Source of the DNA: an uncultured Lentimicrobiaceae bacterium
GTDB taxonomy: Bacteria; Bacteroidota; Bacteroidia; Bacteroidales; 4484-276
Direction of reading: 5' to 3'
DNA: 46,129 nucleotides
NCBI GenBank assembly: GCA_964612515.1
Contig: CAZTCX010000006.1
Span: 1-46,129, forward strand
The notes beneath the pieces are model-generated. The model saw only the letters and a list, made by a program, of their open reading frames with translations, had not been told where the DNA came from and ran no database searches. How positions within the stretch are numbered: position 1 is the first letter of the stretch; each line of letters starts with the position of its first letter. The translations under genes were made by a program, and so were the position numbers. This document shows positions 3,434-22,540 of this stretch, in pieces.

Positions 3434-3451
3434 ATCAGAATCAGAAAAGAG

Positions 3452-6400
3452 TTATTTTACAATCAACTTGCGATGAATTACCTGCGAATCGTTGTAGATA
3501 CGCATGTGAATAACCCCGGTAGCAAAAGATGATAAATCAATAGCAACGCGATTCTCACCATCCTCGGCCAAACGGCAGGAAATGGTTTGCAGCACCTGTC
3601 CGTTGACATTCCGAAGCTCAATTTGCATATCGCTTTTTACACCCGAAACATATACCATTCCTGAAGTAGGATTTGGATAAACAGAAATCAGTGAAGTATC
3701 ATCAGGTGTCGGAATTGCCGTTGTTGATGTTTTAGTAATGACCGACACGCCTCCCGAAACAAATTGTCCGTTATGGCAGGCAAATGTCTGATCGAACGCA
3801 ACTTCCAACGTGAATTGCTCGCCGGTTGCCGGACGAATTACTTCAAAACGGATGGCTTCATTTTCGGCAAATCCATCCGTTGCGTCAGTGAGTACATCAT
3901 TGCCAAAAAGAACGATCACATTTCCGAAATCATTTATCTGATGTGCTCCGGCACAAATTCCGGAGGTGGTAAACGCGCCAAGGATGTCGCCAGGCTGAAG
4001 TATGGCAGCCAGATCGTCGTGGATTGCAATGCTGTGCGAGGCTGGTGAATAATGAATCTCGTTCCAGGGGGTATCATATTTGGGTTGTAGCGGCGCTGCT
4101 CCGGCTGACGATTTCAATCCGTCGCATTCGGCAAAGGTGAGGCTAAAAGGTTGGGCTGCTCTGATCTCGTAAGCACGACCCGGCTGCAATTCACCAATGG
4201 TATTGATACTTAAGGCCGGCCAATAAACGCCTGTTCCGGCGATCTCTTTTACTATCTGAACTTTTGTATCATAACCAGCAAGCAAAGTAGCAATATTCAC
4301 GGGACAACTGCTGATTACCGGAAGGTAATTCCAGCCAGATACCATTTGTACCTTACGGTTGCTATTGTTGTCGCCCACTAATTTAAAGGCTACGCTGGTA
4401 GAAAATTTTACGGTATAGCCGGTTTGTGCGTCCCACAAATTCAAAGTTTTCACGTTGTGCTCCGGATAAAACATTTCGCTATAGTTACGTGCTATGACGA
4501 AATCATCCAGATAAGGATCAAAAATAGCTTCGATGTTTGGGTCACCCGGATTAATCCAGGACGATAATCCACTCCATCCGGCAGGGATCATTACTATCTG
4601 CTGATCATAAACTTGCAGATACATCACGTTACTGGTCGCGGAACCACAGTCATTAAAAACTTCAAAATAGTAATATCCTTCGTCCTCGTAGGTAGCTTGC
4701 GCAATAAGCAGCTCCGGCATATTTGCACCTGCTATCATTCCGTCAGGACCATACCATTGGCAACCTGTAGCATTCTCAACTTCCATATTTAATACGATGC
4801 TTTCGCCAATGACCACATAAGTATCGGTAAGATTGGACACGAAAGCAGGCAATGGATCAATGGTGAGCATAAAGCTGCTACTAATAGAATTTGTGCATGG
4901 CGCCAGGGCAAAAGCTGTAAGCGTAAGTTCTGCCTGACCATTTGCTGCATCGGCCATACCAGGAGAATAGATGGTAAGAATAGAGGAAGCGTTTGTAAAA
5001 GTGCCATCTCCACTGGTAGTCCAAAGAATGTTTGAATAATCTTCGGCGGAAGCCAACGTGGTTTCAACTATCCCACCCTCGCAAACGGTTTTATCCGCAC
5101 CAGCTTCTACCAGGGGCATCACGGGTTTTGTAATCGTAAGGCTGTCGATAGCTGAGGCAAAGTCGTCGAAAGCAATGGCGTGAAGGTACAGCGTAATTTC
5201 ATCGGCTCCACGGTCGGCGGGGCCTAATTTATATTTACCAACACCAGCATTTGGATGATCGAAAGTACCGTCGCCGCCGGTGGTCCATTGCAAAGCCTTG
5301 TATCCGCTCGCTGAACCTGCCAATGCGACAATACTGTCGTTTCCACAAATAAAGATGTTTGCACCAGCATTTGCCTGAGCATCATCACCTTCTTGCGTGA
5401 GCTTAAGCGCTATCTCATCTGCAGCATCCATAACGCATGGGTTGATCGACATAACAGCCATCGCCAAATGAATGGTGTCCTGATAAACATCGAAGGGCGA
5501 CGCGATATAAGAAGCGTTTACGGAAGTAGGATTTTCGAACATACCCATACCATTGGTGGTGTACCACTGCACCAGCGAAGCATTTTCAGCCCAGGCGTCA
5601 GCGATATGATATGGTTCTCCAAAAGGAACAATATTATCACCACCCGCATAAACCACTGCATTTTGTAGAATAGTAACCTTCACACAATCGTTGGCATCCT
5701 GACAAGGAGGAGTTGCAATGGCTTGCACACACAGAGTTACCGTTCCGACAACATCGTCGATAATTCCCGGGAAATAGGTAGGATGCAACAACGTGGCATC
5801 ATCAAAGGTTCCATCACCTGTGGTGCTCCACAGAATAGCTTCAGCAAAGTTTATCATAGCATTTTCCAGCATAATACTCTCGCCTGTACAAATTGTCAAA
5901 TCTGCTCCTGCGTTGGCTTCGGCATCGATACAATCATTTCTCTCTATCGTCAGCGTCAGTTCACAAGTTGCTGAAATCGTACATGGATTTTCTGGTTTAG
6001 CTTCCAACTTGAGTACAACGTTACCTTGTCCCACATCAGAATTACTCGGAGTATAAATGGTGTTGAGCTCATTTGCATTAATAAAAACACCTGTTCCGGA
6101 GGTGTGCCAGATAACCTCGCTGTGGTGTTCGGCAGTTGCATCCAGCAACTGATAGCTTTCTCCCTGCTCAATGATTGCATCTGAACCCGCATAAGCGAAA
6201 GGAAGAGGAACAATTGTTAAAGTTAGGCATTCAGAAACCGCCTCACAATTGGCTTTGCCAAAAGCTGTGAGGCAAAGCTCGGTACCGCCATTGCTTACAT
6301 CGGCAGTGCCCGGGAAATATTTAGTTACCAAAGCACTGGCATTGGCAAACGTACCATCGCCATCCGTACTCCATAGCACAGATAGCTGGTTAGTGGCTTG

Positions 6401-9400
6401 CCCCTGCAATGAAACCTGATTATCAGCGCAGCTCAGAATATCACCACCCGGATAAACGGTGGGCGATTTCATGATGGTTAATTTCATGCAATCGTTAGTT
6501 GTAACACACGGTGACTGGCCATTGGCTTGCAGGCAAAGATTGACATAACCGTTCAGCGCATCATTAGAGCCAGGTGTGTAGGTGGTAATAGCTGCCGTTG
6601 GGTCAGCAAAAGTACCATCTCCGTTGGTGGTCCATTGTATGGAGATGGTATTTTGTACTGATCCATTCAAAATATAAGGAGTAGTTTGACAGGTGGTTGC
6701 GTCAACACCGGCATTGGCTACAGGGACAGGAACGAGTGAAACTGCGACTGCATCAGTCACGAAGCCGCATCCATTAGAACCAGTAGCTTTGATAGTTAGC
6801 TGAACGAAACCATTATTTTTATCAACCTGGCTTGGGAAATAAGTGGGATTCAAAATCTGTGGATTGCTGAAGCTTCCTGTCCCGCTGGTATTCCAAAATA
6901 CCGATGAGTGACCAGTGGCAGTTGCCTGAAGTGGCACATTTTGGTTGGCACAGACTGTTACATCATTTCCGGCAAAAGCCGTAGGTCCCGGCTGGAAAGT
7001 AAGGATTAGGCAATCACTCACTGGTTCACAAATGCCGCCGCCGCTTTGGGCTGTAAGGCATAGTTTCGCGCCCAGATTGGCATTGTCTGTTGCGCCGGGA
7101 TAATAGGTTGTGGTGTGCGCAGATGGATTGGCAAAAGTGCCGTCGCCATCAGATGACCAAAGTACAGAGCTGGCATTGGCGGATGCACCCGAAATAGTTG
7201 CATATTGATTCACGCAAAGTGTCTGATCTTCTCCCGCATCTGCTGTTGGGGGAGTTTGAAGTGTAATGACCAAGCAATCCTGCGACTGACCACAACCATT
7301 TTCTGCAAAAGCATTTAGACAAATTTTTGCAGATCCTTCCGCGATATCGTTGTTGCCCGGCGTGTAGATGCTGACGAGTGCTGTAGTGGTGCTGAAAGTT
7401 CCGTCACCAGTGGTCGTCCATTGCAGCGATTCAAATTTGCTGGCTTGTGCCGATAATGCAACATTAGCTGTGTTGCAAATAGTAACATCGTTTCCGGCGG
7501 CTACTTCAGGCAAACTGATAATCGTGAGCTGCATACATGCCATGGTATTTTCACAAGCGAAACGGCCGGTAGCTGTAATGCACAAATCAGCTCCACCTGC
7601 TGCCACATCATTGGCACCGGGATAATATACCGATGAAAGCGCTTGTGGTGTTGCAAAAGTTCCATCTCCCGTTGTGCTCCAAAACACCGATTGATAATGT
7701 GCGGCTACAGCTACGACTGTTATGGTCTGACCCGGGCAGATAGCAACATTTTCCAGTGCAGCTATTTCAGGATTGGGTTGCAATGTAATTTTCAACCCGT
7801 CACTGATTTGCGTACAGGGTGAAATCCCCTGGGCCGTAATGGTGAGGTTGGCATAACCCATCATTTTGTCCTGACTTCCCGGGAAATAAGTTGCATTTGC
7901 TAAAGAAGCATTATTAAAGGTTCCGTCGCCGGCAGTAGTCCAGGCAAGGCTGCTGTATTTAGTTCCTGTGGCAATCAATTGTGCAAAGTTGCTTTCGCAG
8001 ATGGTAAAATCAGCTCCTGCATTTATTACCGGCGCCGGTTGAATCGTTAATAACATCGCGTCGAAAGCATTGTCACAAACACCATTGGCGAAAGCTTTAA
8101 GCGAAAGCACAACGCTTCCCTGGCTTTTGTCATTTGCGCCCGGAGTATAGATAGCATTAGGCAAAGTCGCGTTATTGAACGATCCATCACCCGCAGTGCT
8201 CCACAATACGCCATTATTGTTGGAAGCTGTACCTGATAATTGATACGTCTGGTTTTGACAGATTACCGCATCAGCACCAGCATTGGCAATCGGACTCTTT
8301 TGAATCTCAATTTCGATACACGATAAAGCATCAGCACAAGCTGCCGCAGAAATAGCTTTGAGACATAAAGTTACAAAACCATTTTGCAGATCAGCGGCTC
8401 CGGGTGTGTACATTGCGTTAAGCGCCGAAGGATTGTTGAAAACGCCGTCGCCACTGGTGCTCCAAACAACGCTGGCGAAGTTGGTGGCTATGGCCGATAA
8501 CTGCACCTGTTCGCCGGCACATATCTGCTGGTCGTTGCCGGCGTTGGCAGTAGGCACAGGTAAAATATTTATGATCATTTCACTGATGGCGTCACCACAA
8601 TTCCCTGACGAAAATGCCGTGAGACTGATCTTAGCCTTACCAAGAGCGATATCTCCGGCTCCCGGCAAATAGGTAGTGTTGAGAGCAGCAGCATTTGTAA
8701 AGGCACCGTCGCCTTTGGTTGTCCAAAGCAAGCTTTCATAATCGGCTGCCTGCCCGACAAGGGTGGCAGTTCCCGTTTCGCAAATGATCATATCATTTCC
8801 TGCATTGGCGTAAGCCGATGGAATTAGCGTAAGCACAAAAGAACTTGCGTCCGAAGTACATCCCGCCAATGGATTTGCGACAAGCTGCAGTTCTACAGTT
8901 TCGGCTACAATATCGGCAGCTCCGGGATAATAAATTGTGTTGAGGAAGGCTGCATCTTCAAAAGTGCCGTCGCCTGAAGTTATCCATTGCAGGCTTTGAT
9001 AATCGGCTGCAAATGCTTCAAACAGCATGTATTCCTCATTGCCACAGATAGTAGCATCCTCACCGGCATAAACGATGGGCTGGGCATTGAAAGTGACGCA
9101 CAGAGTATCATACACCGCTTCACACGGGCTGTTGGTTGCCGACAGAATCAAATCGACACGTCCACCGATTTTTTCATAAAAACTAAAGACATACCGCGTC
9201 ACAAGCTGATTTGGTGAAGTAAAAAATCCTTCTCCGGTAGTGATCCATAAAATATTTCCTCCGTTCACAGCACTTCCAACAAGATCAATGTAATCTTCAG
9301 TAACACACAAGGTGACGTTCTCGCCGGCATCAATCACTGGCGAATTGCCAAAAATGATCTCGAGGCAATCTGTTGCGTTATTGCAATTTCCACCAGCAAA

Positions 9401-12400
9401 AGCTGTGAGACAAAGCTGGACAGTGCCTGCAGTCCGATCAGAAGTGCCGGGGAAGTAGCTTGTATTAATATTTGATACTGCACCAAAAGTACCGTCGCCG
9501 CTGGTATTCCACAAAACTCCGGTTTGATTTTGAGCGGTTGCGGTAAGCACTATTCCGCCGCTGTAGCAAACGGTAAGATCAGCACCTGCATCAGCAATGG
9601 CATCTTGGCAATCGGGCGTAATGGTTAGTTGCTTCTGATCGCTGGCTGCAACGGTACATGGATTAAGCGGCGCTGCCTGAAGCGTGAGAACGACTTGCTG
9701 CTGTTGCTCGTCAGGTACCGACGGCGTGTAGGTGGTGTTCAATTGATTTGCATTACCAAAAATACCACTGCCATTGGTAATCCACTGCACTGCCGTGTGG
9801 TATTGTGCGGTGGCGTCATTAATCTGAAATTGCTTTCCGGTAATCGCGACTGCATCCTGGCCGGCATTGGCTATCGGATTCTTTTGTATGCTGATGGAGA
9901 TGCAACTTGTGCTTTCCGGGCAACCCATCAATCCTTGTGCAGTAAGGCAAAGCCCGACATTACCATTAAGTTTATCGGCTGCTCCGGGAGTATATTTCGC
10001 GTTAAGCGCTGAAGTATTATTAAAACTTCCATCGCCATTGGTACTCCACGTGAGGCTGGCATAATTGGCGGCTGTAGCCGAAAGCTGTACCTGTTTGCCT
10101 GCGCAAATCTGTTGGTTATTGCCGGCGTTGACGGTGGGCATTGGTATGATATTAATTTGCAATTCACTCGTTGCATCACCACAATTTCCTGATGAAAATG
10201 CGGTGAGACTCACTTTCACGTAACCCAGCGTACGGTCAGCGGTTCCGGGGAAATAGGTTGTGTTGAGAACAGTAGCATTTGCAAAAGTTCCGTTTCCAGT
10301 GGTTTCCCAAAGCAAGCTTTCATAATTTGCAGCCTGCCCGGCAAGAAGTGCATTTTCAGTTGCACACAGGGTCAAATTATTTCCAGCATTGGCGTAAGCT
10401 GACGGAATAAGCGTAAGGGTGAAATTGCTTTGTGCCTGCTGGCATCCCGATAGCCCGGCAGCCGAAAGGGTTAAGGTTACCATGCCTGCCGTCGCATCAT
10501 TGCTACCCGCATAATAGGTTGCGTGAAGCATCGAGGCATTGTCAAAAGTACCATCACCATTGGTTGACCATAAGAGAGCTGAATAATACGTAGCGGTAGC
10601 ATTGGTATTAATGAAGGGATCGCTGGCGCAAATGGTAGCATTGCTGCCGGCAAAAACCACTGCAGCTTTATTGATGGTAACGGTAAGCGTGTCGCTTACG
10701 GTTCCACAGGTGGCATTGGTAGCTTTAAAAACCAACTTTACTTCACCCAGTTGTTTATCCAGGCCACTAAAGAAGTATTTGGGGGTTTGACTTGTGGTTG
10801 GAGAAAAATAACCCGTTCCCAGGGTCACCCACTGAAACGACTGATAGTTCTGTGCCTGTCCGTTTAGCTGAACAAAAGAGTTGGTTGTACATGCAGAAAT
10901 ATCTGCTCCGGCATCAACAATTGGCGGGGTCCCAAAAGTAATCGTAAGACAATCGGTAGCATCATTGCAATCTCCGCTGGCAAAAGCAGTAAGACAAAGC
11001 TGAACATTGCCATTTACTATGTCAGCCGCGCCGGGTAAATAAGTGGTATTAATATTTGTTGCTGAAGCAAAAGTGCCGTCACCATTTGTAGTCCACAAAA
11101 CTCCGGTTTGATTCTGTGCTGTTGCGCTTAGCGCAATGGAACCGCCGGAGCAAAAAGTAATGTCAGAACCTGCATTAACAATAGCATCCTGGCAATTGGG
11201 TGTAATGGTCAATTGCTTCTGATCGCTGGCTGCAACTGTACACGGATTGAAGGGTGCTGCCTGCAGTGTAAGAATGACCTGCTGTTGTTGCTCGTCAAGT
11301 ACTGATGGCGTGTAGGTGGTATTTAATTGATTGGCATTACCAAAAATACCACTGCCATTGGTCAGCCATTGCACTGCCGACTGGTATTGTGCGGTGGCAT
11401 CATCAATCAGATATTGCTGGCCGGTAACAGCCATTGCATCCTGGCCGGCATCGGCCGTTGGATTGTAGCGTATCTCTAGCGTGGTGCAACTGATATTTTC
11501 GGGACAGCCCATCAATCCTTGCGCGGTAAGACATAACTCGACGCTGCCGTAAAGCAGATCGGTTGTTCCGGGAGTGTATTTAGCTTGCAACAGTGTTGCA
11601 TTATCAAAAGTACCGTCGCCTTCAGAAGTCCAATGCACGCTGGCATAATTTGCGGCTGTGCCCTGAAGCACATAAGAATTACCGGCACACACGGCGGCAT
11701 TGTTTCCGGCGTTCACTTGTGGAACCGGAACAAAAGTTACTTTAATGCAATCGCTCGCCGGCAGACATTCTCCATAGCCTTGAGCATTCAAACACAAAGT
11801 TACGCTGGGAGCAGAGGCATCGCCAGATCCCGGATAATAAATAGGCTGCGGTGTGTCGCCATCGGTAAATACGCCATCACCAGAAGTAGTCCAGGTGAGG
11901 GATGCATAATTGCTTGCCGTGCCAAAAAGCGGCAGACCAACAGTGCTGCAAACGGTCATGTCGTTTCCAGCCCACACTTCAGGCATGTCGTCAAAATAAA
12001 GTACAATCTGATCACTGGCTGAAGTGCACGTTTCATAAGCTGCTACTGACATGGTCAGGGTTACTGATCCATTGTCGAGATCCTGCTCTGAAGGATAATA
12101 CTGGGGACGGCTTATGTAATTATAGTCGAAAGTTCCGCTACCATTGCTTGTCCACAGGACACTGCTGAAGTTTTTGGCCACTGCTTCTGCAAGGAGTACC
12201 GAAGAAGTTTCAAGTTCCTTACACAGATGCATATCAGCTCCTGCAAATGCCGTAGCATCGATACAATCTCCCACAAAATTTATAGCTACCATATCTTCAT
12301 CAGCAATCTGGCATGGGGTGATAGGGGAAACAGCTATGAAAATAAAAATCTGCCCCTGCATAATGTCCATTGGCGATGCGTAGTAGGTTGGATGCAAAAT

Positions 12401-15400
12401 ACTTTCGCTGTCGAACATACCCATTCCGTTGGAAGTGTACCATTGTATGGTTTCGAAATTCTCAGCATACGATTGTGTCAGGTGATAGCCTTCGCTGATG
12501 GGCACAGTATTATCCGATCCTGCAAATGCCAGCGGTGGCTTTTGGAATGTCAGCGTAATGTAATCGCTAATGCTCTGGCCATCGTTGCCAAAGGCTTTCA
12601 GGCAAAGCGTTGCCTGGCCGTTGTAAATCTCACCAGAACAGGGAGTATAAATAGGATTAAGTATTGAAGCATTACTAAAGGTTCCGTTTCCACTGGTGCT
12701 CCATTGCAATGTGGCGTAGTTGATGGCCTGAGCAGCCAATTGTATATTTTGACCTGAACAAACCACAGCATCTTCTCCCGCATCTACCATAAGATCCAGA
12801 ATGTTGATGGTCAACAGCATCGCATCACTTACAGGCAATGTGCATGGATTTTTGGGCAAAGCGTTAAGCGTAAGCGTCACCGGTTGGTTCTGATAATCTG
12901 CTTGCGACGGAGTATAAATCGTCACTGCCTGCAGTGGGTTAGTAAAAGTTCCGCTTCCCGAAGTGCTCCATTCTATCCAGGAATAATGCTGGGCATTGGC
13001 CAAAAGGGTCTTATAGCTGCTGCCCTGATCGATGGTGGCATCGTTGCCGGCAAATACCACGGGGTTCTTTTCTATGGTGAGCAGCAGACAACTGGAAGCG
13101 TTTCCGCAACCCGACAATCCCTGCGCATTCAGGCAAATTTCGACACTTCCCGCGGCAATATCCTGACTTCCGGGATGGTATTGCGCATTAGCGCCCTGTC
13201 CATTTGTAAAAGTACCATCGCCATTTGTGATCCAAAGCAGTGAGCTATAGTGTGCAGCAATTCCCGTAAGCAGAAGCGAACCACCTTGACAAATGGCAGC
13301 ATCCGCTCCCGCAAATACTGTAGGAAGTGCTATGATATTAATGTCGGTGCAATCAGTTGCATTGCCGCAGGGCGTCGTGCCTTTAGCCGTCAGGCAAAGA
13401 GTGACAATTCCTGCAGCTATGTCAGCAGTGCCGGGTGTGTATTTCGCGTTAAGCGCAAAAGGATTATTAAAAACGCCGTCGCCACTGGTGTTCCAAATTA
13501 TGCCGGTATGATGGGTGGCTGTAGCCGAAAGCTGTACCTGACTGCCTTCACAAATCTGCTGGTTGTTGCCGGCGTTGGCAGTGGGCATTTTTATGATATT
13601 AATTTGCAATTCACTTGTTGCGTCGCCGCAATTCCCTGATGAGAATGCCGTAAGGCTAACTTCTACATAGCCTAAAGCACGGTCAGCTGCTCCCGGAAAA
13701 TAGGTGGTACTGAGGTTGGCAGCGTTGGCAAAAGTACCATCGCCAATAGTTTCCCACAATAAACTTTCGTAATTAGAAGCCTGACCCGCAAGAGCTGCGG
13801 TCTGCGTAGCACAAATGGTCATGTCATTTCCTGCATTGGCGATAGCAGACGGAATAAGCGTAAGCATGAAACTGTTTTGTGCCTGCTGGCATCCCGACAG
13901 TCCGACGGCAGAAAGCGTCAAAGTTACCGTGCCTGTTGTTTTATCATTTGTACCAGCATAATAAGTTGCGTGAAGCAATGAGGCATTATTAAAAGTCCCA
14001 TCGCCGGTGGTTGACCAGAGGAGCGCCGTATAATTCGTAGCGGAAGCATTGGCGATGGTAAACGGCTGGCTGGCGCAGACGGAAGCATTGCCACCAGCAT
14101 ATACTGTTGGAGGAGTATTGATGGTTACGGTGAGCGTATCGCTCACGGTTCCGCAAGTGGCATTGGTAGCTTTGAAGACTATCTTTACCTGGCCCAATTG
14201 TTTATCTAGGCCGCTAAAGAAATATTTGGGAGTAAGACTTGTGGGCGGAGAAAAATAACCTGTTCCCAGCGTCACCCACTGGAAAGACGTATGATTTTGC
14301 GGCTGACCAATTAAATTTACAAAAGAGCCTCCACAGACTGTAATATCGGATCCGGCATTTGCGATGGGCGCTTTGCCAAAAGTAACATTGAGGCAATCGG
14401 TGGCGTCGTTGCATTCTCCATTTGCGAAAGCGGTAAGGCAAAGCTGAACATTGCCAGTTGCAATATCGGCGGTACCGGGATAATAAGTGGCGTTAATATT
14501 TGTGGCATCATTAAAGGTGCCATTGCCTGAGGTTGTCCAAAGCACAGAAGTTTGGTTTTGGGCTGTTCCGCCAAGGGTTACGTTGGATGTTTCGCAAACT
14601 GTCCGGTCAGATCCAGCATTGGCCACAGCGTCTTCGCAACCATTTACGAAAGTGATTACCATCTCATCCTGAATGTTGCCAACGCAAGGATTTTGTGCAT
14701 TAGCAATCAGCTTTAGCGTCACCACCTTATTTTGATAATCCGCTTGTCCGGGTGTGTAAATAGTCGATAATGCCGAAGGGTTAGCAAAAGTGCCGTCGCC
14801 GGAAGTACTCCACAGCAACGATGAATAATTATTGGCCTGAGCCGCATTTGTATTATAAAGATCTCCGATGATGAGTGTTAAATCATTCCCTGCGTAGATA
14901 TTGGGCATCGGTTGCAGATGCAAAGTCATGCAATCATTGACGATGGGACAGCTCTGGATGCCGTCGGCGCTAAGGCACAACTGCACCGTTCCGGCGGTTT
15001 TATCGGCTATGCCCGGAAAATATTGGGTCTGCCGTTGGTTGGGATTGGCAAAACTTCCATCTCCTGAGGTTGTCCATTGCAGCGTTTCGGCATTGGTGAC
15101 TACTCCGTTTGTATTAAATGATTGATTAACACAGATCGTTGCATCAACTCCTGCATTCACCGTTGCCGGTGTGAGAAGGACGATTTTGATCTGATCAGTA
15201 GCATCATCGCAAACGCCGTTGGCTTTCGCCAGAAGATTTAATAATACAAAACCATTTTGGGCGTCGCCGGCTCCGGGGGTATAGGTGGGGCGCAACAGGC
15301 CGCTATTGCTGAAGGTGCCGTCGCCTTGCGTGCTCCAAAGCAGTGATGCGTAATTCTGTGCTGTTGCCGACGACAAAGCGACAGGTGTGCCTGGATTGAA

Positions 15401-18400
15401 ACAGATTTGCTGATCGGCTCCGGCATAGGCAGTAGCATTTTCACATCCGGAGGTAATGGTAAGATTCATTTCGTCGAAAGACGCCGTAACACAAGGATTG
15501 ATGGGTAATGCTGTTAGTTTCAGAACCACAACTTGAGTGTTATAATCGGCTTCCAGCGGTGTGTAGGTTGCCGTGAGGGAGTTTGCATTTTGAATAGTTC
15601 CGGCGCCATTGGGCGTAGTCCAAAATATGCTACTGGCGTTTGTTGCCGATGCACCATTAATCGTAAAACTACTTCCGAGTGCCACTTGCCCATTGTTACC
15701 TGCATTTACCACAGGGTTTCTGGTAATGGAAACCGTGAGGGAGCCAGATGCGTTGCTACAGGTATTTCCTGAAATAGCTGTGAGTTGAAGCACAACCTGA
15801 CCATTGGCAATGTCGAGGTTGCCCGGTGTGTAGGTAGTTGATAATGCTGATGCGTTGGCAAAAGTGCCATTCCCGTTCGTACTCCAGATAACAGATTGTG
15901 CATTGGTAGCGGTTCCGCTAAGTTGTACATTTTGCTGTTCACAGACGGTTATATTACTGCCGGCATTAACAACCGGCGAAGTCGATAAAGTGACCAGTCT
16001 GCTATCCTCAGCGGTGGTCTGGCAGGGCGACTTAGGTAAAGCTCTCAGCGTAAGCGTAACACCTCCGGCTGCCACATCCTGATTGGATGGATTGTAAGTT
16101 GTACTGCGGGCGTTTTTATTTGCAAAAGTACCGTTACCGCTTGTTTCCCACACTGTAGAATTATAGTTGGATGCAGTGCCGCTTATCGCAATGGGCTGTC
16201 GTTCGCAGGAAGCAATATCGTTACCTGCGTTACTCACCGGATTTTTAAATATTGTAACCACGAGTTGATCAGCAGCAGAAACTGTACAGGGCTGCTGGGC
16301 GCCTGCTGTTAAAGTTAGTGTAACGGTTCCCAGTTGTATGTCGTTGTTTCCGGGATTATAGCTGGTTGCTAATTGTTGCGCATTTGAAAAACTCCCATCT
16401 CCCGATGTCGTCCAAAGGACGCCGCTGTTGTACTGCACACTTCCACTAACTGATACTTGTGTCCCCTGACAGGCTGTGACGTCATTTCCTGCATTTGCAA
16501 GTGGTGCGTGCTTTATCTGTATAGTCTTGTTCATGACGGCATTTCCTGAGCAAGGTGAAACAGAAGATGCTGTGAGGGTAAGCTTCACGCTACCATTGGC
16601 TATGTCCTGCGAACCCGGTGTATATTGCGGGTTTAGAATCGAAGGATTACTAAATGCTCCGTCGCCGGTGGAAGTCCATAATAATGAGCCATAGTTTGAA
16701 GCTGATGCTGATAAACTGATGGGTTGCGTTTGGCAAACCGATGCAGGTGCAGTAATCTGATTAACTACAGCCGGCTTGAGGATAGTCACAATTTTTTGAT
16801 CAGCATTTCCATTTACGAAAGGGGGCTGACCAAAGGGTGTTAGTGAAAGGAATACTTGTCCGGCGGTCACATCAGCAGCCGAGGGCGTATATTGTGTGGA
16901 TAGCTGAGTTGCATTAGCAAATGTACCGCTGCCGGAAGTGGACCAAAGCACAGAAACATAGTTTGTAGCACTGCCCTGCAATGTAACCTTGGTGGCACCA
17001 CAAATAGTAACGTCGGGACCAGCGTTGGCAACTGCTCCTTCTACAAAACTAACCAACAGGCCATCCTCAGCGGGTGTGGTACAAGGAGCCAATGGATTTG
17101 CCTTCAGAGTGAGAAACACCGATTTATTATTTAAATCACCTGCTCCAGGAGAATAGCTGGTTACAGCCTGCTGCGCATTGGCAAATGTGCCGTCGCCTGC
17201 AGTCGACCATAGGAGTGAAGAATAGGATGATGCAGTGCCATTAAGTGGAACTATTGCGGTATTTAGGGTTGCGAAATCCTCTCCGGCATTTACTACCGGA
17301 TCGGGATTAACCCAAAGATCCATTCTGTCAAATTTGACTCCTACACAAGGTTCAATAGAAGTCACGTAAATGGTAAGTCGTGGTTTACCATTGATTTTGT
17401 CGTTAGGCCCGGGGGTGTAAGTAGTTACCAGTTGGGTATCGTCCACAAAGGTACCATCTCCACTGGTGTACCACTTCACCGTACTTTGATAAGAAGCAGT
17501 AGCACAGGTGGTAAAAGTTTCATTAGCGCAAATGGTAGCATCATCACCGGCATAACATATTGCAGGTTTATTGATCTGGAGGAATGTTTCTTTTACTATC
17601 GAAGCATCGCAAGGTGGCTGGCCATAACCTGTAAGTGTAAGCTTCACCGTGGAGTGAGAATTAGCGTAAGTACCCGGAGTGTAGGTGGTAACAAGTGATG
17701 TAGGATTACTAAAAGTTCCATTGCCAGCCGTTTGCCACAACAATCCCGACACATTACTGGCAGTCGCTTCAATATCAACGGGCACGCCCTGACAGGTAAA
17801 AAGATCCTGAGGAACTACAACAATAGGAGAGGGGAAAAGTGTTATTTCCATCTGGTCGGTAGCCTGGGCGGTACACGGTGCCATAGGCTGGCACGCAATG
17901 CTAAGAATAACTCCATTGTTATTAAAATCGCCATTGCCGAAATAGTAAATTGTATTGGCCGTATTACTATTTTCGAAAGTGCCATCGCCGGATGTTGACC
18001 AAAAGACATTAGAAACATTCTGAACTACCGGCGAAAGCAAGATTTGATTAATACCGCAAGTTGCAATATCCTCCCCAATGTTTACAAAAGCAGATTTACT
18101 TACGCAGATGCCAATAAAACTGGTGGCGGTAGCAGTACCCAAGGTAGCCTTTACTTTAAAAATTTTATCTTCAGTTACAGAAACTGATGGATTTTTAAGA
18201 GAAGAGGTAAATCCCGGGGGGATGGATGTCCAGTTGTAGGTTATGTTTCCTGACCCGGTAATAATTTCCGCATTCAGAGAGGCAGTGCCCTGATCACAAA
18301 ACAACTCCTGATTAGCCGCGGCCCGAACGATTACATCCTCAAAGCAGTTCATCTTGATGAGTTTAATCAGGTTCAACGGATACCATTTGTTACTCATCGT

Positions 18401-18931
18401 GTATTCAGGGCTGAGTTGTATCTCGTCCACATCAAATTCGGCCATCATGTCAAAAGAAAATAGTTTGTAATGAATGGTTTCGCCATAGGCAAAGCCTTCT
18501 TTGATCGGTGTGTCCGGGTCGTCGCCAAACAGCGAGAAAACGATACCCGCAGTATCAGGCCAGTAAATGGCACCAGCACACTGATATTGTCCCTGGGAGT
18601 TCAGGAAAAATCCGCCGATTGCATCGTTTTGCTTCAGCGGCATTCCGTTGATCTTAGGGCGGGCCTCTTTGGCCACAATTACCCCGGTAATATTACCGGT
18701 ATTCACTGGCAAGTCCCACCCCGGAGGATAAGTAAAAGAACTTTTGGAATTAGAATTTTCCAATAACGAATCAAGAATTTTCTTCCCATTTAAAATCATT
18801 TCAGGATTTTCCTGACTTACCCCATCGGGCAACTGAGAATAAATTTGAGCGTTAAGTGTGTTTGTAGTGCATAGTGTTAGCGTCAGGGCATAGACCGCCA
18901 CCCTGATAATCCAGTTGTAACATAAACTCAT
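3452..18931 (-). CDS. Giant (5,159 aa) secreted repeat protein, T9SS type-A cargo; putative fibrillar surface adhesin built from ~50 copies of an unassigned ~87-aa module
   Basis: A single uninterrupted 15,480-nt ORF. It has an N-terminal signal peptide and ~50 tandem modules sharing AGxDxxxC...W-x-T-x-G-D-G-T-F...Y-x-P-G-x-x-D...G-x-V-x-L-x-L-T-A...C. The C-terminus carries YPNPTSGMVYV...IHMRIYNDSQVIHRKLIVK, typical of a T9SS sorting domain. Confidence 0.9.
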   Translation of the reverse strand: MSLCYNWIIRVAVYALTLTLCTTNTLNAQIYSQLPDGVSQENPEMILNGKKILDSLLENSNSKSSFTYPPGWDLPVNTGNITGVIVAKEARPKINGMPLKQNDAIGGFFLNSQGQYQCAGAIYWPDTAGIVFSLFGDDPDTPIKEGFAYGETIHYKLFSFDMMAEFDVDEIQLSPEYTMSNKWYPLNLIKLIKMNCFEDVIVRAAANQELFCDQGTASLNAEIITGSGNITYNWTSIPPGFTSSLKNPSVSVTEDKIFKVKATLGTATATSFIGICVSKSAFVNIGEDIATCGINQILLSPVVQNVSNVFWSTSGDGTFENSNTANTIYYFGNGDFNNNGVILSIACQPMAPCTAQATDQMEITLFPSPIVVVPQDLFTCQGVPVDIEATASNVSGLLWQTAGNGTFSNPTSLVTTYTPGTYANSHSTVKLTLTGYGQPPCDASIVKETFLQINKPAICYAGDDATICANETFTTCATASYQSTVKWYTSGDGTFVDDTQLVTTYTPGPNDKINGKPRLTIYVTSIEPCVGVKFDRMDLWVNPDPVVNAGEDFATLNTAIVPLNGTASSYSSLLWSTAGDGTFANAQQAVTSYSPGAGDLNNKSVFLTLKANPLAPCTTPAEDGLLVSFVEGAVANAGPDVTICGATKVTLQGSATNYVSVLWSTSGSGTFANATQLSTQYTPSAADVTAGQVFLSLTPFGQPPFVNGNADQKIVTILKPAVVNQITAPASVCQTQPISLSASASNYGSLLWTSTGDGAFSNPSILNPQYTPGSQDIANGSVKLTLTASSVSPCSGNAVMNKTIQIKHAPLANAGNDVTACQGTQVSVSGSVQYNSGVLWTTSGDGSFSNAQQLATSYNPGNNDIQLGTVTLTLTAGAQQPCTVSAADQLVVTIFKNPVSNAGNDIASCERQPIAISGTASNYNSTVWETSGNGTFANKNARSTTYNPSNQDVAAGGVTLTLRALPKSPCQTTAEDSRLVTLSTSPVVNAGSNITVCEQQNVQLSGTATNAQSVIWSTNGNGTFANASALSTTYTPGNLDIANGQVVLQLTAISGNTCSNASGSLTVSITRNPVVNAGNNGQVALGSSFTINGASATNASSIFWTTPNGAGTIQNANSLTATYTPLEADYNTQVVVLKLTALPINPCVTASFDEMNLTITSGCENATAYAGADQQICFNPGTPVALSSATAQNYASLLWSTQGDGTFSNSGLLRPTYTPGAGDAQNGFVLLNLLAKANGVCDDATDQIKIVLLTPATVNAGVDATICVNQSFNTNGVVTNAETLQWTTSGDGSFANPNQRQTQYFPGIADKTAGTVQLCLSADGIQSCPIVNDCMTLHLQPMPNIYAGNDLTLIIGDLYNTNAAQANNYSSLLWSTSGDGTFANPSALSTIYTPGQADYQNKVVTLKLIANAQNPCVGNIQDEMVITFVNGCEDAVANAGSDRTVCETSNVTLGGTAQNQTSVLWTTSGNGTFNDATNINATYYPGTADIATGNVQLCLTAFANGECNDATDCLNVTFGKAPIANAGSDITVCGGSFVNLIGQPQNHTSFQWVTLGTGYFSPPTSLTPKYFFSGLDKQLGQVKIVFKATNATCGTVSDTLTVTINTPPTVYAGGNASVCASQPFTIANASATNYTALLWSTTGDGTFNNASLLHATYYAGTNDKTTGTVTLTLSAVGLSGCQQAQNSFMLTLIPSAIANAGNDMTICATQTAALAGQASNYESLLWETIGDGTFANAANLSTTYFPGAADRALGYVEVSLTAFSSGNCGDATSELQINIIKMPTANAGNNQQICEGSQVQLSATATHHTGIIWNTSGDGVFNNPFALNAKYTPGTADIAAGIVTLCLTAKGTTPCGNATDCTDINIIALPTVFAGADAAICQGGSLLLTGIAAHYSSLLWITNGDGTFTNGQGANAQYHPGSQDIAAGSVEICLNAQGLSGCGNASSCLLLTIEKNPVVFAGNDATIDQGSSYKTLLANAQHYSWIEWSTSGSGTFTNPLQAVTIYTPSQADYQNQPVTLTLNALPKNPCTLPVSDAMLLTINILDLMVDAGEDAVVCSGQNIQLAAQAINYATLQWSTSGNGTFSNASILNPIYTPCSGEIYNGQATLCLKAFGNDGQSISDYITLTFQKPPLAFAGSDNTVPISEGYHLTQSYAENFETIQWYTSNGMGMFDSESILHPTYYASPMDIMQGQIFIFIAVSPITPCQIADEDMVAINFVGDCIDATAFAGADMHLCKELETSSVLLAEAVAKNFSSVLWTSNGSGTFDYNYISRPQYYPSEQDLDNGSVTLTMSVAAYETCTSASDQIVLYFDDMPEVWAGNDMTVCSTVGLPLFGTASNYASLTWTTSGDGVFTDGDTPQPIYYPGSGDASAPSVTLCLNAQGYGECLPASDCIKVTFVPVPQVNAGNNAAVCAGNSYVLQGTAANYASVHWTSEGDGTFDNATLLQAKYTPGTTDLLYGSVELCLTAQGLMGCPENISCTTLEIRYNPTADAGQDAMAVTGQQYLIDDATAQYQSAVQWLTNGSGIFGNANQLNTTYTPSVLDEQQQQVILTLQAAPFNPCTVAASDQKQLTITPNCQDAIVNAGSDITFCSGGSIALSATAQNQTGVLWTTNGDGTFASATNINTTYLPGAADIVNGNVQLCLTAFASGDCNDATDCLTITFGTPPIVDAGADISACTTNSFVQLNGQAQNYQSFQWVTLGTGYFSPTTSQTPKYFFSGLDKQLGEVKLVFKATNATCGTVSDTLTVTINKAAVVFAGSNATICASDPFINTNATATYYSALLWSTNGDGTFDNASMLHATYYAGSNDATAGMVTLTLSAAGLSGCQQAQSNFTLTLIPSAYANAGNNLTLCATENALLAGQAANYESLLWETTGNGTFANATVLNTTYFPGTADRTLGYVKVSLTAFSSGNCGDATSELQINIIPMPTVNAGNNQQICAGKQVQLSATAANYASLTWSTNGDGSFNNTSALNAKYTPGAADKLNGNVGLCLTAQGLMGCPESTSCISISIQKNPIANAGQDAVAITGKQFQINDATAQYHTAVQWITNGSGIFGNANQLNTTYTPSVPDEQQQQVVLTLQAAPLNPCTVAASDQKQLTITPDCQDAIADAGADLTVCYSGGIVLTATAQNQTGVLWNTSGDGTFGAVSNINTSYFPGTSDRTAGTVQLCLTAFAGGNCNNATDCLEIIFGNSPVIDAGENVTLCVTEDYIDLVGSAVNGGNILWITTGEGFFTSPNQLVTRYVFSFYEKIGGRVDLILSATNSPCEAVYDTLCVTFNAQPIVYAGEDATICGNEEYMLFEAFAADYQSLQWITSGDGTFEDAAFLNTIYYPGAADIVAETVELQLVANPLAGCTSDASSFVLTLIPSAYANAGNDMIICETGTATLVGQAADYESLLWTTKGDGAFTNAAALNTTYLPGAGDIALGKAKISLTAFSSGNCGDAISEMIINILPVPTANAGNDQQICAGEQVQLSAIATNFASVVWSTSGDGVFNNPSALNAMYTPGAADLQNGFVTLCLKAISAAACADALSCIEIEIQKSPIANAGADAVICQNQTYQLSGTASNNNGVLWSTAGDGSFNNATLPNAIYTPGANDKSQGSVVLSLKAFANGVCDNAFDAMLLTIQPAPVINAGADFTICESNFAQLIATGTKYSSLAWTTAGDGTFNNASLANATYFPGSQDKMMGYANLTITAQGISPCTQISDGLKITLQPNPEIAALENVAICPGQTITVVAVAAHYQSVFWSTTGDGTFATPQALSSVYYPGANDVAAGGADLCITATGRFACENTMACMQLTIISLPEVAAGNDVTICNTANVALSAQASKFESLQWTTTGDGTFSTTTALVSIYTPGNNDIAEGSAKICLNAFAENGCGQSQDCLVITLQTPPTADAGEDQTLCVNQYATISGASANASSVLWSSDGDGTFANPSAHTTTYYPGATDNANLGAKLCLTAQSGGGICEPVSDCLILTFQPGPTAFAGNDVTVCANQNVPLQATATGHSSVFWNTSGTGSFSNPQILNPTYFPSQVDKNNGFVQLTIKATGSNGCGFVTDAVAVSLVPVPVANAGVDATTCQTTPYILNGSVQNTISIQWTTNGDGTFADPTAAITTYTPGSNDALNGYVNLCLQANGQSPCVTTNDCMKLTIMKSPTVYPGGDILSCADNQVSLQGQATNQLSVLWSTDGDGTFANASALVTKYFPGTADVSNGGTELCLTAFGKANCEAVSECLTLTIVPLPFAYAGSDAIIEQGESYQLLDATAEHHSEVIWHTSGTGVFINANELNTIYTPSNSDVGQGNVVLKLEAKPENPCTISATCELTLTIERNDCIDAEANAGADLTICTGESIMLENAMINFAEAILWSTTGDGTFDDATLLHPTYFPGIIDDVVGTVTLCVQAIATPPCQDANDCVKVTILQNAVVYAGGDNIVPFGEPYHIADAWAENASLVQWYTTNGMGMFENPTSVNASYIASPFDVYQDTIHLAMAVMSINPCVMDAADEIALKLTQEGDDAQANAGANIFICGNDSIVALAGSASGYKALQWTTGGDGTFDHPNAGVGKYKLGPADRGADEITLYLHAIAFDDFASAIDSLTITKPVMPLVEAGADKTVCEGGIVETTLASAEDYSNILWTTSGDGTFTNASSILTIYSPGMADAANGQAELTLTAFALAPCTNSISSSFMLTIDPLPAFVSNLTDTYVVIGESIVLNMEVENATGCQWYGPDGMIAGANMPELLIAQATYEDEGYYYFEVFNDCGSATSNVMYLQVYDQQIVMIPAGWSGLSSWINPGDPNIEAIFDPYLDDFVIARNYSEMFYPEHNVKTLNLWDAQTGYTVKFSTSVAFKLVGDNNSNRKVQMVSGWNYLPVISSCPVNIATLLAGYDTKVQIVKEIAGTGVYWPALSINTIGELQPGRAYEIRAAQPFSLTFAECDGLKSSAGAAPLQPKYDTPWNEIHYSPASHSIAIHDDLAAILQPGDILGAFTTSGICAGAHQINDFGNVIVLFGNDVLTDATDGFAENEAIRFEVIRPATGEQFTLEVAFDQTFACHNGQFVSGGVSVITKTSTTAIPTPDDTSLISVYPNPTSGMVYVSGVKSDMQIELRNVNGQVLQTISCRLAEDGENRVAIDLSSFATGVIHMRIYNDSQVIHRKLIVK
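3455..3691 (-). other. T9SS type-A C-terminal sorting domain (CTD)
   Basis: LISVYPNPTSGMVYVSG...IELRNVNGQVLQT...LSSFATGVIHMRIYNDSQVIHRKLIVK has the conserved YPNP motif and the terminal beta-strand pattern of Por secretion-tail domains. Confidence 0.85.
3791..4075 (-). other. C-terminal copy of the head-type domain (aa ~4953-5047)
   Basis: See the N-terminal domain entry. The shared motifs are xD-I/L-G-x-F, CAGA, LFG(D/N)D and (E/D)GFA-x-x-E-x-I-x-(F/Y). Confidence 0.6.
4607..4834 (-). other. Immunoglobulin (I-set-like) domain following the repeat array
   Basis: NLTDTYVVIGESIVLNMEVENATGCQWYGPDG...ATYEDEGYYYFEVFNDCGSATSNVMYLQV shows the Ig pattern C...W...Y.DxG.Y.C. Confidence 0.6.
8288..9598 (-). 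repeat. Super-repeat copy 3: 5 modules (a-b-c-d-e), more diverged, aa 3112-3548
   Basis: The module order is the same, at a 1,584-nt offset from copy 2. Modules a, d and e are clearly alignable (for example SLTAFSSGNCGDA[T/I]SE), while b and c are more diverged. Confidence 0.75.
9599..11182 (-). repeat. Super-repeat copy 2: 6 modules (a-b-c-d-e/l chimera-m), aa 2584-3111
   Basis: Exactly 528 aa / 1,584 nt. Module b matches copy 1 at 54 of 58 residues from SFQWVTLGTGYFSP to TLTVTIN. Module 5 mixes e-type and l-type segments. Confidence 0.8.
11183..14626 (-). repeat. Super-repeat copy 1: 13 modules (a-b-c-d-e-f-g-h-i-j-k-l-m), aa 1436-2583
   Basis: Modules a-e and l-m recur in the same order in copy 2. 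The offset between matching positions is 3,447 nt, measured from conserved antisense-ORF strings at 14118/10671 and 13431/9984. Confidence 0.8.
18092..18334 (-). other. Divergent first PKD/Ig-like module (aa ~200-280)
   Basis: FCDQGTASLNAEIITGSGNITYNWTSIPPGF...KATLGTATATSFIGICV keeps the C...L.A...Y.W pattern of PKD-like modules but lacks the GDGTF core. Confidence 0.4.
18407..18736 (-). other. N-terminal non-repeat head domain (aa ~66-175), homologous to a C-terminal domain of the same protein
   Basis: It contains NDAIGGFF...YQCAGA...IVFSLFGDDPDTPIKEGFAYGETIHYKLF. Compare GDILGAFT...GICAGA...VIVLFGNDVLTDATDGFAENEAIRFEVI at aa ~4953-5047. Confidence 0.6.
18848..18931 (-). other. Signal peptide of the giant protein
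   Basis: MSLCYNWIIRVAVYALTLTLCTTNTLNA|Q has a hydrophobic core followed by a small-residue cleavage-like site. Confidence 0.6.
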
Positions 18932-20834: not shown

Positions 20835-20974
20835 CAGCTATTTTTTACACATTATTGACATGTAATGAATTTGGGTGGCTAAACTACACAATTTCATTTA
20901 TTCCACCGATAGTCACTGCCATTCTTCGCCTAAAAGGCCTATTTTTGTTTTTTAATTTTTTAAATTTACAACCA

Positions 20975-22540
20975 ATGAAGATACTCAGGATGATAATGCT
21001 TCTCGTGTCCGTGCTTGCCTTGCAGCACCTGGCCGCGCAACACACCAACATAATGATTAGCAATACGAGCGTTCCGGAGGAGCCTACCATATACATCGAT
21101 CCCAACAATACCAATCGCATTATTGCCGGTGCTAATATTAATAATTTGTTCTACTCGAATGATGGTGGCTTTAGCTGGGAAGTGAAAAAGCTCTATTCGT
21201 CGGCTTATGGAGTGGCCGGCGACCCGGTGGTGATTGTGGATCAGACCGGGAATTATTATTATTTTCATCTCTCCAGCCCACCCAATGGCAGTTGGCTCGA
21301 CCGCATTGTTTGTCAAAAATCTACTGACGGCGGCGTAACGTGGAATCAAGGTTCTTACATGGGTTTGAATGGTGACAAAGACCAGGACAAACCGTGGGTG
21401 GATATCGACAGGAACAATGGAAATATCTATGCAACCTGGACGCAGTTTGACGTCTATGGCAGCTCCAATTTACAGCACCGCAGTAATATTATGTTTTCGA
21501 AATCTATCGACAGCGGCGAAAGCTGGTCGCAGGCGATAAGGATAAATGAAGTTGATGGCAACTGCATCGACAGCGGTGAAACGGTAGAAGGTGCCGTTCC
21601 GGCTGTTGGGCCTAATGGCGAAATTTACGTTTGCTGGGCGGGCCCGCTGGGTTTGGTTTTTGACCGGTCGCTTGATCAGGGAGAAACCTGGCTCGAAAAC
21701 GACATATTTGTGAGCGACTTCCCGGGAGGATGGGATTTCAACATCCCCGGCATTTCACGCTGCAACGGGATGCCCATTACGGTGTGCGACCTGAGCGGTG
21801 GCCCGAACCATGGAACTATTTACATCAACTGGTCCGATCAACGTAATGGCACCGACGACACCGATGTGTGGCTCGTGAAATCAACCGACGGTGGCAATAC
21901 CTGGAGTGAGCGTATTCGTGTAAACGATGACCCACCAGGAAGACAGCAATTTTTTACCTGGATGACTGTAGATCAGGTTACCGGCCATCTGCATTTTGTT
22001 TTCTACGACCGACGCAACTACGACGACACCAACACCGATGTATATATGGCAACTTCCACTGATGGCGGTGAAACCATTAGTAACTTCAAAATCAGCGAGG
22101 AACCCTTTGTACCTACGTCGGGTATTTTCTTTGGCGATTACAACAATATCTCGGCTGTAAACAATGTGATTCGCCCCATCTGGACGCGTCTGCACAACGG
22201 GCAACTCAGCGTGTGGACGGCGATCATCGACACTACCCTCACCAGCATTGAAAATCATGACGAACCGGCGATACCGTTTGCACTGCACCAGAATTATCCC
22301 AATCCTTTCAGCGCCACCACTCACTTTTCGTTTAAGCTGCGAAGCCCGGCAACCGTTACTTTAAAAATTTATGATTTGTACGGACGACATATTGCATGCC
22401 TGATAGACCACGAGAGACTTGGCATTGGCATGTATCTCGAACATTTCGATGCCCGCAAATACAACCTGACGCCCGGCGTGTATTATTTCTCGCTCACCGG
22501 CGACAACGTAAACAGGGTGCGGATGATGGTGGTAGAATAG
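20975..22540 (+). CDS. BNR/Asp-box repeat (sialidase-like beta-propeller) protein with T9SS type-A CTD
   Basis: Six SxDxGxTW-type Asp-boxes are present: SNDGGFSW, STDGGVTW, SIDSGESW, SLDQGETW, STDGGNTW, STDGGETI. The signal peptide MKILRMIMLLVSVLALQHLAAQ begins at ATG 20975, so the track's longer start at 20855 is unlikely. The C-terminus NYPNPFSATTHFSF...GVYYFSL...VRMMVVE is a sorting domain. TATTTTTG (20940-20947) is a -7 box 28 nt upstream. Confidence 0.8.
   Translation: MKILRMIMLLVSVLALQHLAAQHTNIMISNTSVPEEPTIYIDPNNTNRIIAGANINNLFYSNDGGFSWEVKKLYSSAYGVAGDPVVIVDQTGNYYYFHLSSPPNGSWLDRIVCQKSTDGGVTWNQGSYMGLNGDKDQDKPWVDIDRNNGNIYATWTQFDVYGSSNLQHRSNIMFSKSIDSGESWSQAIRINEVDGNCIDSGETVEGAVPAVGPNGEIYVCWAGPLGLVFDRSLDQGETWLENDIFVSDFPGGWDFNIPGISRCNGMPITVCDLSGGPNHGTIYINWSDQRNGTDDTDVWLVKSTDGGNTWSERIRVNDDPPGRQQFFTWMTVDQVTGHLHFVFYDRRNYDDTNTDVYMATSTDGGETISNFKISEEPFVPTSGIFFGDYNNISAVNNVIRPIWTRLHNGQLSVWTAIIDTTLTSIENHDEPAIPFALHQNYPNPFSATTHFSFKLRSPATVTLKIYDLYGRHIACLIDHERLGIGMYLEHFDARKYNLTPGVYYFSLTGDNVNRVRMMVVE

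Follow-up and report, generated by a model that had tools for sequence, protein, structure and literature searches.

How did a block of 13 repeat modules, a shortened six-module block and a further five-module block come to lie one behind the other within a single gene, and does this arrangement still change? The question is raised by a stretch of 46,129 nucleotides (the window) of contig CAZTCX010000006.1 from an uncultured Lentimicrobiaceae bacterium. One open reading frame (ORF) on its reverse strand, the giant gene, encodes a protein built of immunoglobulin (Ig)-like modules and ending in a type IX secretion system (T9SS) sorting domain. The original prediction, made from the letters of the sequence, described the nested super-repeat and took it as a sign of ongoing intragenic recombination that changes the length and composition of a stalk, a plausible route to phase or antigenic variation. 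The analysis described here leads to a different answer. With good confidence, the region is regarded as a record of old, in-register unequal homologous recombination between the module repeats of a gene for a giant T9SS-secreted surface fibre.

The nested super-repeat of 13, six and five modules is real. A hidden Markov model (HMM) built from the protein's own repeats finds modules of 86-93 amino acids (aa) arranged head-to-tail, and it places the boundaries of the three copies exactly at aa 1436, 2584, 3112 and 3548, where residue counting had put them. The copies comprise modules M14-26, M27-32 and M33-37, lettered a to m in copy 1 and by the same letters in copies 2 and 3 (Table 1). Comparison of the gene with itself by blastn yields four off-diagonal high-scoring segment pairs: gene nucleotides (nt) 4361-5552 with 7805-8999 (75.6% identity, 1195 nt), 7273-8024 with 8857-9608 (76.9%, 753 nt), 8515-8958 with 10099-10542 (75.0%, 444 nt) and 5066-5510 with 10097-10541 (73.5%). 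The off-diagonal lines predicted at 3,447 and 1,584 nt are both seen, the latter in the second and third pairs, and the fourth pair adds a line at 5031 nt. The offset of the first pair is 3444 nt in module a and 3447 nt from module b on, because b1 carries a one-codon deletion specific to the window. The first two pairs define two direct and interlocked repeats, R1 with arms of ~1.1 kb lying 3.45 kb apart and R2 with arms of ~0.75 kb lying 1.58 kb apart. Tandem Repeats Finder reports nothing for the giant gene, a consequence of periods longer than 500 nt and of the strong divergence between the copies.

The similarity of the copies stands out clearly from the general likeness of the modules. 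Across all 1225 module pairs the median aa identity is 36% and the 95th percentile is 46%. The a modules of the three copies share 68, 64 and 60%, the d modules 80, 69 and 66%, and the e modules 60-67%; the remaining pairs are b1-b2 (77%), c1-c2 (74%), l1-e2 (60%) and m1-m2 (84%). Only at module offsets of 6, 13 and 19 do several pairs reach at least 50%, and the best pair in the window is 85% identical in nucleotides. The near-invariance of module b between copies 1 and 2 holds with a corrected count (53 of 57 residues, not 54 of 58), and its DNA match, estimated by eye at four in five, is 84.8% (145 of 171 nt). The greater divergence of b and c in copy 3 had been noticed but understated: b3 (37% aa, 47% nt) and c3 (45-47% aa) sit at the background level. 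They are taken as b and c by their position and by private motifs alone, namely Y.FS, G.G[YF]F and DTL.VT.N, present only in M15, M28 and M34, and LTLIPSA, present only in M16, M29 and M35. The proportion of differing synonymous sites (pS) is 0.40-0.56 between paralogs and 0.77 in the background. Similarity that reaches synonymous sites indicates common descent, and convergence as the source of the likeness is ruled out for this reason. All three blocks are genuine paralogs.

Copy 2 contains two chimeric modules. In e2 (M31), the 99 informative nt sites are divided near codon 49, with 42 e-like and 13 l-like sites before and 13 e-like and 31 l-like sites after it; the maximum chi-square of 21.7 was reached in 0 of 5000 permutations (p<0.0002). 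The breakpoint test therefore supports the mosaic of e and l that had been read from the translation. One of the cues used then, 'AANYAS' as an l-derived string in the N-terminal half of e2, is weak, since e3 has ATNFAS at this place and e1 may simply have diverged. The second junction, additional to the one first described, lies in a2 (M27). The first ~45 codons of a2 are nearest to a3 (78-80% nt, against 53-68% to a1), and the remainder of copy 2, as far as the e2 junction, is nearest to copy 1; the informative sites in the window are split 37:11 and then 11:21 (p=0.002). In every junction, modules of the same cysteine class are joined in register (4-Cys with 4-Cys), which leaves the succession of Ig-like domains unbroken. 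Module e2 is thus a true chimera of e and l, joined in register as is usual after unequal recombination.

The same mosaic would be produced by a mirror-image history, in which the six-module unit with an unsplit e module (today's e2) represents the original state and an insertion gave copy 1 seven further modules, made up of the C-terminal part of e, f-k and the N-terminal part of l; e2 would then be no deletion scar. In this case, too, the N-terminal part of e1 would resemble that of e2, and the C-terminal part of l1 that of e2. The end of e3 (...SCIEIEIQKSP) also looks nearer to those of e2 and l1 (..SCISISIQKNP and ..SCTTLEIRYNP) than to that of e1 (..DCTDINIIALP), although in its last 25 codons e3 favours none of the copies significantly (46-66% nt). 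Unequal crossing-over can insert only existing material, however, and f-k have no close paralog in the gene, their best partners being 38-51% identical in aa. It is only because f-k have no donor elsewhere that the insertion history is disfavoured, and it is considered unlikely.

The age of the super-repeat follows from a comparison of three lineages. W is the window lineage. S is represented by a single metagenome-assembled genome (MAG), found in a scan of one genome per species, whose giant gene was joined from two contigs (L001 and L002). B comprises a contig of a Bacteroidales MAG (L003) and two metagenome contigs (L010 and L011), with mutual identities of 99.3-99.9%; L010 is 82.6 kb long and bears nearly the entire giant gene. 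No close relative of the window organism was found. The ends of the two S contigs overlap by 70 identical nt within m1. The same 70 nt differ from the m2 copy at two positions, and the join is therefore specific. The S genome is named 'Clostridia bacterium INTA.CYC.150', yet its contigs hold genes for T9SS cargo and show synteny with contigs of Bacteroidales; probably either the name or the binning is in error.

The joined S ORF encodes 5159 aa, exactly the length of the window protein, to which it is 74% identical and collinear over 50 modules. Only four single-residue insertions or deletions separate W from S, despite a synonymous divergence (dS) of >1, and the ratio of nonsynonymous to synonymous divergence (dN/dS) of ~0.12 indicates that the giant ORF is under purifying selection. 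The three lineages are about equidistant (pS 0.54-0.62, dS about 1.1-1.3). In B, copy 1 is present, as are a copy 2 that includes the same chimeric e2 (77% to M31) and a3-d3, in the order d2-e2-m2-a3-b3-c3-d3; the lineage lacks exactly M37 and M38 (174 aa); the junction is chimeric, ...SSGNCGDA/TDEMLLTLQP..., running from M36 into M38. All three B assemblies have this one layout. Among the three lineages, module number changed only a single time (50, and 48 in B). In-register chimeric junctions, the mark of unequal crossing-over, are thus found in e2 and a2 of the window and at d3/M38 in B. Both junctions of copy 2 are sharper in S than in W: the informative sites of a2 are split 65:0 and then 0:21, with the changeover at codon 68, and the e2 junction is placed at codon 51. 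The e2 orthologs cluster by position (W-S 78%, W-B 77%). An independent origin of copy 2 in each lineage is ruled out by this grouping and by the e2 junction codon that W and S have in common. The super-repeat and its e2 scar are common to W, S and B and are therefore older than the split of the three lineages.

The same comparison bears on the concern, raised together with the original prediction, that copies 2 and/or 3 were made or misplaced by the assembler. Giant repetitive genes are often misassembled, and the S assembly itself breaks within m1/m2. The window copies, on the other hand, differ at 15-35% of their bases, far past the point of assembler confusion, and the reading frame is unbroken. 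The same module order through copy 2 into copy 3 recurs in four assemblies made independently from other samples (S, L003, L010 and L011). Together, these findings make an artefact extremely improbable.

The paralogs have not evolved as inert duplicates. The pS between the R1 arms (with 95% intervals) is 0.53 (0.46-0.60) in W, 0.27 (0.22-0.32) in S and 0.03 (0.01-0.06) in B, and between the R2 arms it is 0.47, 0.08 and 0.36, respectively, against 0.54-0.62 for orthologs of different lineages. Expressed as nt identity, copies 1 and 2 share 75.6% in W, 87.4% in S and 97.8% in B, and between-lineage orthologs share ~75%. Paralogs that are closer within a lineage than orthologs are between lineages indicate lineage-specific gene conversion; the pattern is clear in S and B and marginal in the window. 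The per-module trees that had been called for were built by neighbour joining. The S paralogs pair with 95-100% bootstrap support, and a1, e1, e3, l1, b3, c3 and d3 cluster by position across lineages, with b3, c3 and d3 forming deep orthologous clades (bootstrap 90-100%). Gene conversion is limited to R1 and R2 and is lineage-specific. The trees also contradict the order of events implied at first, in which copy 3 follows from copy 2. Copy 3 did not arise from copy 2, and the N-terminal part of a2 derives from a3.

Exchange between the copies may have left its mark even among B strains. Two of them differ at 22 clustered sites in copy 2, where copy 2 of L010 equals its own copy 1, and L010 has an 847-nt tract over which copies 1 and 2 agree perfectly. 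A separate patch in the same contig, gene nt 6063-6339 in modules 20-21, differs from L011 at 28 sites within ~280 nt, the two being otherwise about 99.9% identical. The L010 variant matches no paralogous module and neither W nor S; it is either sequence imported locally from some diverged strain or a patch that is hypervariable.

Does recombination, then, still alter stalk length and composition in the window organism, and serve phase or antigenic variation? Intragenic recombination is indeed at work in the gene family, as the recent conversion in S and B and the two-module deletion in B demonstrate, and to this extent the prediction stands. The R1 arms of B, 98% identical over 1.1 kb, are a workable substrate for the deletion or duplication of 13 modules, and the clustered differences between the two B strains point the same way. 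In the window the situation is different. The R1 and R2 arms are only 75.6% and 76.9% identical and thus far from the near-identical repeats of variable proteins; the copies differ at 23-25% of bases, paralog pS is 0.47-0.53, and the longest identical run in the entire giant gene is 29 nt. RecA-dependent exchange requires about 25 nt or more of identity and drops steeply with divergence. With such divergence and a longest run of 29 nt, the window copies are a very poor substrate for it. The length of 5159 aa is kept in both W and S, and B has a single layout in three assemblies. Neither a simple-sequence tract nor a good invertible-promoter repeat was found at the giant gene; upstream of it, only weak inverted repeats were detected (19 nt with 74% complementarity and 12 nt with 92%). 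An active device of variation in this organism is therefore very unlikely, and neither 'ongoing' recombination in this genome nor its proposed role in phase or antigenic variation is upheld.

From the repeats, their chimeric junctions, their conservation and their lineage-specific homogenisation, we infer the following course of events. An old duplication would have produced two a-b-c-d-e blocks, today copies 1 and 3. An unequal crossover between a3 and a1 would then have doubled the 13-module block, leaving a2 as an a3/a1 chimera and forming the R2 pair (l-m-a). Next, an in-register crossover between e and l in the new copy would have cut out seven modules, with the chimera e2 as its trace. 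All three steps would have been completed before W, S and B diverged. Afterwards gene conversion homogenised R1 and R2 in the sister lineages, repeatedly and in each of them independently. In W, the last exchange would date back roughly as far as the split itself, and its repeats are by now too diverged for recombination at a useful rate. Module number was held nearly constant, presumably through selection on fibre length.

Several points weigh against this reconstruction, in addition to the e2 mosaic that the mirror-image history predicts equally well. Later conversion shifted the ends of the tracts (in a2, to codon 46 in W and codon 68 in S), and the original crossover points are unrecoverable. 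The S gene was joined across the near-identical m1/m2 break, and additional collapsed units could in principle be present there. Conversion in the W lineage after the split is marginal and not proven, because paralog pS is barely under ortholog pS and the W paralog clades are weak (bootstrap 56-70%). Finally, the 847-nt tract of L010 could be either a very recent conversion or a bulge collapsed by the assembler.

Table 1. Positions of the giant gene, its repeat blocks and its chimeric modules in the window
Feature	Position	Strand	Description
Giant ORF	3452..18931	(-)	5159 aa: candidate signal peptide, N-terminal region of 281 aa, 50 Ig-like modules, C-terminal region and T9SS sorting domain
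Candidate Sec signal peptide	18848..18931	(-)	aa 1-28, ...TNTLNA/QIYSQ; hydrophobic N-terminus, read off the translation
Module array	4844..18088	(-)	50 tandem ~87-aa modules, aa 282-4696; self-built HMM, 50 matches
Copy 1	11183..14626	(-)	M14-M26 (a-m), aa 1436-2583
Copy 2	9599..11182	(-)	M27-M32 (a2 b2 c2 d2 e2 m2), aa 2584-3111, 528 aa
Copy 3	8291..9598	(-)	M33-M37 (a3-e3), aa 3112-3547; older copy
R1, first arm (a1 C-part to e1 N-part)	13380..14571	(-)	blastn 75.6%/1195 nt to 9933-11127
R1, second arm (a2 C-part to e2 N-part)	9933..11127	(-)	self-blastn
R2, first arm (l1 C-part, m1, a2 N-part)	10908..11659	(-)	blastn 76.9%/753 nt to 9324-10075
R2, second arm (e2 C-part, m2, a3 N-part)	9324..10075	(-)	self-blastn
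Third copy of the conserved segment (c end, d, e N-part; copy 3)	8390..8835	(-)	blastn 75.0% to copy 2, 73.5% to copy 1
Chimeric module e2 (M31)	9875..10135	(-)	e-like up to about codon 49 (about nt 9989-9991), l-like from there on
Chimeric module a2 (M27)	10922..11182	(-)	a3-like up to about codon 46 (about nt 11045-11047), a1-like from there on
T9SS type-A C-terminal sorting domain	3455..3682	(-)	PF18962 E 6.5e-9; TIGR04183 E 2.3e-7

Several known systems resemble the giant gene in one respect or another. The alpha C and Rib proteins of group B streptococci vary through their repeats, and repeat-driven variation is also a property of the surface protein CagY of Helicobacter pylori (described in PMC2194252 for CagY). 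In all of them, in-frame recombination between direct repeats within one gene deletes or duplicates blocks and leaves the frame intact. Their repeats are near-identical and vary within strains or during infection, whereas those of the giant gene are 15-35% diverged, in a layout fixed over dS >1. Parallels in concerted evolution are provided by the super-repeats of titin and nebulin. Intragenic homogenisation of long repeats has been described for spider aciniform silk genes (PMC3933166). As in these genes, blocks of several modules were doubled as a unit and paralogs are closer within a lineage than orthologs are between lineages; the giant gene differs in being bacterial and in its patchy homogenisation, which affects R1 and R2 only, differs from lineage to lineage and leaves most of the 50 modules (median 36%) untouched.

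A literature search on giant T9SS adhesins turned up only general reviews. The SprB protein of Flavobacterium johnsoniae (6,497 aa) is a giant repetitive surface filament secreted by the T9SS (bioRxiv 10.1101/2024.01.29.577165). The giant protein would likewise be a giant repetitive T9SS-secreted cell-surface filament of the Bacteroidota, but the SprB repeat PF13573 has no match in any third of it at E<=0.01. SprB uses a type-B sorting domain. That of the giant protein is type A (TIGR04183), and sprC/D/F-like neighbours are absent from its locus.

The closest known relative is GhpA, the T9SS cargo that forms the grappling hook of Aureispira sp. CCB-QB1, a protein of 5,898 aa with 52 Ig-like repeats that assembles into a heptameric fibre of uniform length (bioRxiv 10.1101/2024.01.29.577165). 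The likeness begins with size, 5,898 aa and 52 repeats in one giant T9SS cargo versus 5,159 aa and 50 modules in the other. GhpA (PDB 9flp/9fly, among others) is the sole PDB sequence matched by the module profile, with an E of 1.3e-22 summed over many weak stretches, the best single one reaching 24 bits. The base of GhpA (9fly_A) is also the top Foldseek match of a predicted two-module structure (E 8e-9, 22% identity). Between the modules and the repeats of the GhpA stem there is a distant homology, and the giant protein has, like GhpA, about 50 of these Ig-like repeats. The uniform length of the GhpA fibre would fit the conserved module number. The differences are that the giant protein lacks the ~1,400-aa hook module, with 281 aa before its first module, that no PorP/PorE-like ghpB/ghpC genes adjoin its gene, and that it has 8 Bacteroidota-type O-glycosylation motifs only. 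The giant protein would work like other giant Ig-repeat T9SS fibres, GhpA being the closest by repeat sequence and predicted fold. A bolder idea, speculative and rather doubtful, is that the fibre is a length-calibrated, GhpA-like multi-stranded stem in one anaerobic lineage of Bacteroidales. Recombination at R1 and R2 would constantly propose changes of six or 13 modules, and selection for an exact count (50; 48 in B) would purge them and leave only copy-neutral gene conversion.

As expected of T9SS type-A cargo, the last 76 residues of the giant protein are a C-terminal sorting domain (PF18962, 36.4 bits with a cut-off of 27; TIGR04183, 30.7 bits with a cut-off of 23). The N-terminus resembles a Sec signal peptide. 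A single module matches no Pfam family at threshold. PKD_4 reaches a summed score of 35.5 bits (cut-off 27) in the middle third, where no single stretch passes, and a two-module piece scores 16.7 bits. The AlphaFold model of two modules, for which the 49 pairs of adjacent modules were aligned, is of very high confidence (pLDDT 97.3) and consists of two beta-sandwich Ig-like domains. The module family is widespread: it is found in 19,791 representative proteins at E<=0.001, the best-scoring 150 of which span 1,084-7,183 aa. Most modules fall into three cysteine classes, and a few deviate: 2-Cys (positions 11 and 72), 4-Cys (11, 63, 72 and 78) and a third without Cys11, in which the additional Cys lies in a 'C-x-D-A' linker of 3-5 aa (M10, M13, M22, M26, M32 and M46). 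Disulfides connect neighbouring Ig domains in GhpA, and by analogy the same may hold for the giant protein. Traces of an older layer of repeats are seen at M10-M11 (15164-15712), M22-M23 (11981-12532) and M48-M49 (5114-5656). M22 and M48 are unusual 'WYT.NGMGMF' modules with a linker, 41% identical to each other in aa and 57% in nt; M20 and M46, at the same 26-module offset, share 46%. The module after the linker module has an insertion past the first Cys in M11 and M23.

The N-terminal 281 aa have no PDB or Pfam match, a homolog search gave one partial match, and a single-sequence AlphaFold model of the region is unusable (pLDDT 31). The non-repeat C-terminal region (3455-4843, aa 4697-5159) consists of an Ig-like domain and ~300 aa, followed by the sorting domain. 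Used as a query, it retrieved no ortholog of full length, only fragments and T9SS proteins of small size. Many such Bacteroidota T9SS proteins of 450-740 aa contain a version of it with 31-43% identity, and over its first ~70 residues it is matched by a phage tail protein, in the Ig-like end of the latter (9c2d_S, E 2.7e-11). The two terminal regions share a segment of ~59 aa with the pattern D.IG.F...CAGA....G.V..LFG.D..T...GFA..E.I, at 18461-18637 (aa 99-157) and 3839-4000 (aa 4978-5031), with 34% identity and a pairwise E of 3e-4. One domain may be present at both ends of the fibre.

The neighbours of the giant gene are ordinary chromosomal genes, encoding a Mur-ligase/FolC-like protein, an SDF symporter, a BNR/T9SS protein, a TetR regulator with an RND efflux system and an FKBP, and the flanking genes are conserved in lineage S. 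The BNR/sialidase-like repeat protein (20855-22540, forward strand) is encoded two genes upstream, past the SDF symporter and on the opposite strand. Its match to the T9SS sorting domain is weak, with 21 bits where the cut-off is 27, and it is kept in S. Lineage S has an additional gene between the giant and the FolC-like genes (a 506-aa frame with a T9SS-type tail, L001 about 7900-10700). The window has no counterpart of it, the giant gene ending at 3452 and the FolC-like gene at 3333. No intrinsic-terminator-like site was found downstream of the giant gene.

No new mechanism is revealed by this locus, and the process is already known from other repeat genes. The analysis corrects the attractive yet unsupported reading of such a repeat pattern as a device for phase or antigenic variation. 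It is also a worked example of how a fossil can be told from an active repeat switch by the module layout in orthologs, the divergence at synonymous sites and the length of the longest identical run. For one large class of giant Bacteroidota surface proteins, which Pfam does not annotate, it documents block duplication, in-register deletion and lineage-specific conversion at a nearly fixed number of modules. If the doubtful idea of a length-calibrated stem were true, the super-repeat would not serve variation but would be the imprint of a molecular-ruler constraint. That module number stayed nearly fixed while conversion was active hints that fibre length is under selection, an idea made testable by the structural model of GhpA.

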